Shown one piece after another: positions 1-638 of a stretch of 638 bases of DNA (positions within the stretch are counted from its first letter, which is position 1; every line of letters begins with the position of its first letter). The notes below the pieces were generated by a model that was given only the letters and a program-made list of their open reading frames with translations, was not told the origin of the DNA and ran no database searches. The DNA is taken from assembly GCF_003334385.1 (NCBI RefSeq), contig NZ_QOWN01000157.1; one strand, given 5' to 3'. The DNA comes from Escherichia coli. Lineage in GTDB: Bacteria > Pseudomonadota > Gammaproteobacteria > Enterobacterales > Enterobacteriaceae. The position numbers and the translations under genes are program-made.

Positions 1-638
1 TCAGAGCAGTCACCGCGGGTGGTGCTCTGGGAAATCGACCTGACGGTACAGGGCGGTGAGCGGTATTTTTTCTGTAATGAGCTGAATGAAAAAGGGGAGC
101 CGGTGACCTGGCAGGGGCGGCAATATCAGGCGTACCCGATTGAGGGGAGTGGCTTTGAGATGAACGGAAAGGGCAGCAGTGCCCGCCCGTCGCTGACGGT
201 GTCCAATCTGTTTGGTCTTGTCACCGGAATGGCGGAGGATTTGCAGAGCCTGGTGGGGGCCACGGTGGTCCGCCGCCGGGTGTATGCCCGTTTTCTGGAT
301 GCGGTGAATTTCGTTGCGGGCAATCCGGAGGCGGACCCGGAGCAGGAGCTGAGTGACCGCTGGGTGGTGGAGCAGATGTCGGAGCTGACAGCCATGACGG
401 CCTCGTTTGTGCTGGCGACACCGACGGAGACGGACGGTGCGCTGTTTCCCGGTCGCATCATGCTGGCGAACACCTGTATGTGGGATTACCGGGGAGATGA
501 ATGCGGGTATAACGGTCCTGCGGTGGCGGATGAGTTCGACAACCCCACCACGGATATCCGTAAGGACAGATGCAGCAAGTGCATGCGCGGGTGTGAACTG
601 CGCAGGAATGTCGGCAATTTTGGCGGTTTCCTTTCCAT
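1..638 (+). CDS. L: Phage minor tail protein L (lambda gpL family, tail-tip assembly protein); partial at both 5' and 3' ends, internal fragment in frame 1
   Basis: Seen in sequence: frame +1 (codons 1-3, 4-6, ...) is open for all 212 complete codons, with no in-frame stop. The translation contains long stretches I recognise from lambda gpL, recalled from memory and not from a database search: VVLWEIDLT, GERYFFCNE, EKGEPVTWQGRQYQ, GSGFE, NGKG, RP(S/T)LTVSNL, VTGMAED, QSLVG, TVVRR, VYARFLDAVNFV, ADPEQE, ASFVL, TPTETDGA, FPGRIMLANTC, YRGDECGY, GPAVADE, CSKC and RNVGNFGGFLS. Codon usage is GC3-rich and enterobacterial-phage-like. No start codon is expected in the window because the N-terminus lies upstream. 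Confidence 0.92.
475..594 (+). other. Cysteine-rich C-terminal region of gpL-like protein (5 Cys within 40 codons), a candidate iron-sulfur cluster binding segment
   Basis: Seen in sequence: Cys codons at 475-477 (tgt), 502-504 (tgc), 571-573 (tgc), 580-582 (tgc) and 592-594 (tgt), in the context TCMWDYRGDECGY...DRCSKCMRGCEL. Established knowledge: the C-terminal domain of lambda gpL-family tail tip proteins has been reported to coordinate an iron-sulfur cluster through conserved cysteines. Which four of the five act as ligands is not determinable from sequence alone. Confidence 0.6.

Follow-up and report, generated by a model that had tools for sequence, protein, structure and literature searches.

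The question raised by this locus was which gene a 638-base stretch of Escherichia coli DNA belongs to, and how that gene is related to its counterpart in phage lambda. The window, by which we mean the whole 638-base stretch that was analysed, almost certainly comes from the interior of the gene that encodes the tail tip (hub) protein L in a lambda-like long-tailed E. coli prophage. The gene is an ordinary one that has already been catalogued, and nothing about it is new.

Identity of the gene in the window

On the + strand, frame 1 stays open through the whole 638 bases (212 codons), and the remaining two + frames contain many stop codons. The list of open reading frames in the window held only short or antisense entries because the real frame exits the window at both ends. 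On the strength of the open frame and of family models, positions 1..638 (+ strand) were assigned to the interior of a gene for a lambda-L-type tail tip (hub) protein. The fragment spans codons 15-226 plus 2 bases of codon 227 in a 232-codon gene. The start codon and the stop codon both lie outside the window, as do the first 14 and last 6 codons; relative to the window, the unseen ends of L are 42 bases on the 5' side and 61 bases on the 3' side. In loci with an exact copy of the window, L is 699 nt long with the full 232 codons.

The translation matched Pfam PF05100 (Phage_tail_L) with E=3.1e-92 over model positions 3-202 of 206. The NCBIfam equivalog model TIGR01600 (phage_tail_L) scored 362.3 bits against a curated cutoff of 70.75, and the two PHROG matches, phrog_18 and phrog_4199, are both annotated 'minor tail protein'. 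The lambda 'Tail tip protein L' in the PDB (8iyk chain L) matched the window translation with E=1.6e-118, which excludes chance resemblance. In the six loci that carry an exact copy, L is placed after the genes for the tape measure and M and ahead of K, I and J. We infer that the source copy is expressed and, likewise, that its product assembles as a trimer.

The window was also searched for other features. Rfam gave no match on either strand at a permissive threshold, and no repeats or promoter-like sites were detected in the window. Two terminator-like hairpins, both within the coding frame, were treated as chance. Two antisense ORFs (115 and 66 aa) had no PHROG match and were rejected as genes; that third-position differences are in excess in the + frame speaks against a coding role for them.

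Divergence from lambda gpL and the iron-sulfur ligands

The reference for divergence was lambda L (NC_001416 13429-14127), which aligns with the window without gaps, window base 1 corresponding to base 43 of L. Nucleotide identity is 483/638 (75.7%), with 155 differences, and protein identity with lambda gpL is 168/212 (79.2%), with 44 residues changed. The sequence-only reading had taken the gene for a homolog diverged from lambda gpL, which the alignment bears out; near nucleotide identity to lambda L was not found, the two differing at 155 of the 638 bases. The accession given for gpL in that reading, P03738, is used for 'Tail tip protein L' elsewhere (PMC8954984), and the UniProt entry name of lambda gpL is TIPL_LAMBD; both are consistent with that reading.

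Third codon positions carry 100/155 of the base differences, and codons differ synonymously in 71 cases and non-synonymously in 44. This excess of synonymous and third-position changes identifies the + frame as the coding frame. The Nei-Gojobori method gave dN 0.14, dS 1.36 and dN/dS 0.10, with synonymous sites near saturation between lambda L and the window. A ratio of about 0.10 together with a dS of about 1.4 points to sequences that separated long ago and have been held by purifying selection. The differences from lambda L thus represent the old split of two allele families, and neither decay nor a new function. The window has an overall G+C content of 60%, rising to 73% at third codon positions; the matching lambda segment has 57% and 67%, respectively.

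The distribution of the differences was examined by permutation (n=5,000), using the sliding-window maximum, minimum and variance of difference positions. For amino acids the P values were 0.35, 0.90 and 0.20, respectively, and for nucleotides 0.20, 0.19 and 0.09. Clustering of amino acid, nucleotide or third-position differences was not significant in any permutation test (all P>0.09), and no region of unusually high or low divergence, third positions included, pointed to a recombination patch with lambda inside the window. The earlier description of substitutions scattered along the protein therefore holds, the 44 changes being spread over the whole fragment. The peptides quoted in that description are exact (CMWDYRGDECGYNG at window aa 159-172 and NPEADPEQELSDRWVVEQMSELTAMTAS at aa 108-135), and CTWTYRGDECGYSG, given there as the lambda version, is indeed the sequence of lambda L. 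A different segment had also been singled out. This segment, lambda residues 120-147, is the densest changed patch, where 12/28 residues are substituted (pN is 0.27 at window aa 101-140, equivalent to lambda residues 115-154), but the patch is statistically inseparable from uniform scatter.

The cryo-EM structure of lambda gpL has two domains, an HDI beta-sandwich followed by an iron-binding domain, and a [4Fe-4S] cluster surrounded by Cys173, Cys182, Cys205 and Cys212 (PMC10721106). The domain limits of that study were carried onto the window via the ungapped lambda alignment. Positions 1..417 (+ strand) correspond to lambda residues 15-153, which form part of the N-terminal beta-sandwich (HDI) domain, and positions 418..636 (+ strand) to lambda residues 154-226 in the C-terminal iron-binding domain. 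Residues differing from lambda number 30/139 in the N-terminal domain and 14/73 in the C-terminal domain, which is an equal density.

All four [4Fe-4S] cysteines of lambda are kept in the window. Their + strand codons lie at 475..477 (Cys173), 502..504 (Cys182), 571..573 (Cys205) and 592..594 (Cys212); the ligand assignment is that of the published structure, and all four also align with cysteines in the F2-pyocin hub. Judging from these residues, the C-terminal domain would hold an Fe-S cluster through the four cysteines. Cys208 (window 580-582) is also kept; it is a non-ligand in the lambda structure and is replaced by Arg in the F2-pyocin homolog. Lambda Cys140 is Met in the window.

Occurrence of the allele and the mosaic context of L

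A 232-aa protein recorded as 'phage minor tail protein L [Escherichia coli]' and found on 88 contigs has the window translation as its residues 15-226. Clustering at 90% identity places this protein among 8,943 members, apart from the 10,043-member cluster headed by lambda gpL (TIPL_LAMBD). In the phage collection there were 156 matching records, 150 of them at 90-99% identity and mostly from long-tailed Stx-converting phages; the best matches reached 98.1%, and just six records fell in the 60-80% band. Complete E. coli genomes with a match numbered 1,929/5,426, with a median of 2 places per genome and up to 12, and copies at >=90% identity occur in at least 1,878 records of complete E. coli genomes. 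The proposal that the gene comes from a lambdoid relative and not from lambda itself is accordingly upheld: at 75.7% nucleotide identity to lambda, this is a lambdoid prophage allele that is very common in E. coli.

No exact copy of the window was found in the complete-genome E. coli collection, where the best match (99.2%) was a prophage of strain EC2. The EC2 copy has 5 differences from the window, all synonymous and in third positions, and its protein is identical over the window. Exact copies surfaced solely via the protein-to-contig look-up, which returned ten loci; six of these, in NCBI assemblies (L013, L014 and L016-L019), match at 638/638 bases. A scan of IMG/VR with an exact 85-base pattern returned six loci, none of which has the whole window exactly. 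Five are 94-96% identical to the window, and the sixth is a contig end that matches at 99.7% over 332 bases. The exact pattern of window 280-405 had no match among one-genome-per-species contigs.

Close relatives of the window include L of the Stx phages Stx2a_WGPS6, 2851 and YYZ-2008 and of the EC2 prophage (WP_115187404.1), which are 96-99% identical to it at the nucleotide level. They differ from the window by few polymorphisms, mostly synonymous; L of Stx2a_WGPS6 has 2 residue differences.

The neighbours of the window cannot be read from the window itself because it ends inside L on both sides, and mosaicism was read instead from loci carrying the window sequence or a one-base variant. 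In the exact copies, L always lies between an M-type gene (PF05939) and K, I and J, where K has JAB and NlpC/P60 domains. Upstream of L these six loci encode a 113-aa M, a 1,080-aa tape measure (TMP_3/HK97_TLTM) and an Ig-domain tail tube protein, preceded, where the flank permits, by HK97-like head genes (a Peptidase_S78-Phage_capsid fusion, Phage_portal and HK97-gp10_like). In L011, L is one base off the window and is preceded by a complete lambda-type gene set. This set comprises Phage_portal_2, Peptidase_S49, HDPD and Phage_cap_E, then FI, FII, Z and U, and finally a V-type tube protein, G and T, a tape measure of 857 aa (TMP_2) and an M of 109 aa.

Despite these dissimilar upstream modules, L014 and L011 are 95.5% identical over 8.9 kb, a stretch that takes in L, K, I and J and extends past them. 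The shared block starts at locus position 9982, 19 nt before the L start codon, and opens at ...CAGGTGGTGAACTGATG, the final M codons overlapping the start of L. Nucleotide similarity between the two loci was undetectable upstream of position 9982. The M proteins of L014 and L011 are 44% identical, and lambda M shares 79% identity with the M of L011. From V to I, L011 and lambda are about 78% identical, the same level as L, and so the window allele looks, from these comparisons, like a native part of a lambda-type phage with a uniform divergence of ~22% from lambda. The L-K-I-J tip block appears also to have been joined to an HK97-like shaft and head.

Compared with lambda, the EC2-type context shows identities of 45% for M, 78% for L, 87% for K over the shared part, 67% for I and 66% for J. 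H is 26% identical at its C-terminal end only, and G and T have no match. The window gene thus resembles lambda L in its collinear, ungapped alignment, its domain order, its four Fe-S ligands and, in exact-copy loci, its M-L-K-I-J position. The surroundings differ: most carriers have an upstream gpM that shares only ~45% identity with its lambda counterpart, and their genes for the tape measure, the tail tube and the head belong to other Pfam families.

Lambdoid phages are well known for mosaic neighbours. The earlier reading had allowed that the neighbours of this L may have a different origin and had proposed comparing flanking genes for breakpoints. Both points fared well in the relatives, where one tip module lies beside two dissimilar upstream modules and identity drops sharply 19 nt before the L start. 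In genomes with the exact sequence L is the first gene of an L-K-I-J tail-tip module, which is swapped as a unit among phages whose head and tail-shaft genes are unrelated.

Lambda, L011 and L014 are identical over the final ~19 bases of M (L001:4411-4432, L011:9982-10003 and L014:9982-10003), which read CAGGTGGTGAAC TGA and overlap the ATG of L. All three M proteins end in QVVN, despite the dissimilar 113-aa M of L014. This short conserved linker at the M end coincides exactly with the mosaic junction.

Some of the Stx phages carry a 1.67-kb insertion between L and K. In Stx2a_WGPS6 it is 1,666 bases long (L003:8658-10323) and has three genes, which encode a hypothetical protein (on the opposite strand), a 'regulatory protein' and an antirepressor. 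In the EC2-type prophage just 10 bases separate L and K. The position directly after L looks like a moron-type insertion site.

In relatives, K has 247 aa (JAB plus NlpC/P60), and its first ~48 codons are homologous to the 148-base L-K 'gap' of lambda (L001:5129-5276; NC_001416 14128-14275). The regions compared were L020:940-1100, L021:940-1100 and L014:10700-10860. After GAGCCGGAGGC, DE3, HK629, L011 and L014 have one G that the lambda reference lacks; DE3 and HK629 are otherwise identical to the lambda reference over 251 bases. With the extra G, the K frame opens at the ATG that follows the L stop by 5 bases (MTQTESAILAHARRCAPAESCGF...), and K would have 247 codons and a complete JAB domain, compared with the annotated 199 codons. 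The DE3 and HK629 records keep the short 199-aa K by similarity to lambda. The missing G is either an error in the reference, a strain mutation or a real truncation, and a literature search found no report of it.

State of the source prophage and probable exchange within L

Other origins for the window were weighed against a lambda-like E. coli prophage. Were it lambda's own L, or a piece of a lambda-derived cloning vector or DE3-like lysogen, the family and gene length would be as found, and residues 32-41 and the C-terminal NVGNFGGFLS are indeed identical to lambda. The 155 differences in 638 bases, the lack of any 60-base window above 90% identity and the placement of lambda-type L in a separate 90% protein cluster leave this origin with practically no probability. 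It is also very improbable that the gene encodes the hub of an F-type tailocin, a phage-tail-like bacteriocin, and does not belong to a phage. The F2-pyocin hub (PDB 25vf_7) is the second-best PDB match (E=7.7e-41), and together with the siphophage hubs 23gd_C and 9l9p_J it is of the same family and has the four cysteine ligands in common. These homologs are distant, however, with E values from 7.7e-41 down to 1.8e-12, and come from another biological context; the F2-pyocin match is far weaker than that of lambda gpL, and head genes (capsid, portal, connector) lie upstream of L in every exact-copy locus with sufficient flank.

A greater claim can be made for the window as a relic gene in a decayed, non-inducible prophage, intact only for lack of time, although we consider this unlikely as well. 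An E. coli genome may contain up to 12 copies of the gene family, and structural genes are split or missing in related loci (the portal in L013, J in L011 and K in L015), which means that the source prophage could be defective despite an intact L. Yet the frame is intact over 212 codons, the differences from the EC2 copy are synonymous in 5/5 cases and dN/dS against lambda is 0.10. The tail gene sets are uninterrupted in L014 and L017-L019, and inducible Stx phages bear the same allele family at 96-98%. A gene of a lambda-like long-tailed prophage remains the preferred reading of the window.

Several details of the related loci deserve recording. The portal is called as two genes in L013 (849-3433), as is J in L011 (12281-15810), and in L015 (10700-11101) no K is called and the alignment to L014 has a gap of ~240 bases. 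These broken neighbours suggest that some carriers of the L protein are defective prophages. Past the tail fibre genes, L014 (17556-20194) and also L010-L019 encode a DUF4376 protein, and the same carriers encode a protein of ~390-460 aa with YadA_anchor and sometimes YadA_head, an adhesin-like cargo at the prophage end.

Two sharply bounded patches of divergence within L were found by comparing the window with IMG/VR loci (L005, L009 and L006-L008) that are mostly identical to it elsewhere in the gene. In L005 and L009 a 65-base patch (window 481-545) is 69% identical to the window, and the rest of L is identical except for 4 differences at 411-480; TYRSDECGYTGG...K replaces the DYRGDECGYNGP...N of the window. 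The second patch (window 100-220) comprises 121 bases at 86% identity in IMG/VR relatives. Neither patch matches the lambda version, and both represent intragenic mosaicism, presumably produced by recombination among co-resident prophages.

The segment at window 481-545 (CMWDYRGDECGYNG...) lies between and just after two Fe-S ligands, in a domain located on the outer surface of the lambda tail tip. It is conceivable, but we think improbable, that in the L genes of E. coli prophages this segment is a hotspot for the replacement of alleles, possibly under diversifying selection on an exposed surface. If this were true, the selection could reflect contact with the host or with a defence factor, and the segment would offer a handle on the role of the Fe-S domain.

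The significance of the window itself is small, as it is part of a routine prophage structural gene that is already present, and named, in public databases. The loci that carry it show cleanly a textbook point, that lambdoid phages swap tail genes as blocks whose sharp junctions fall at gene boundaries. Given such block exchange, a single gpL allele must work with two very different gpM partners.
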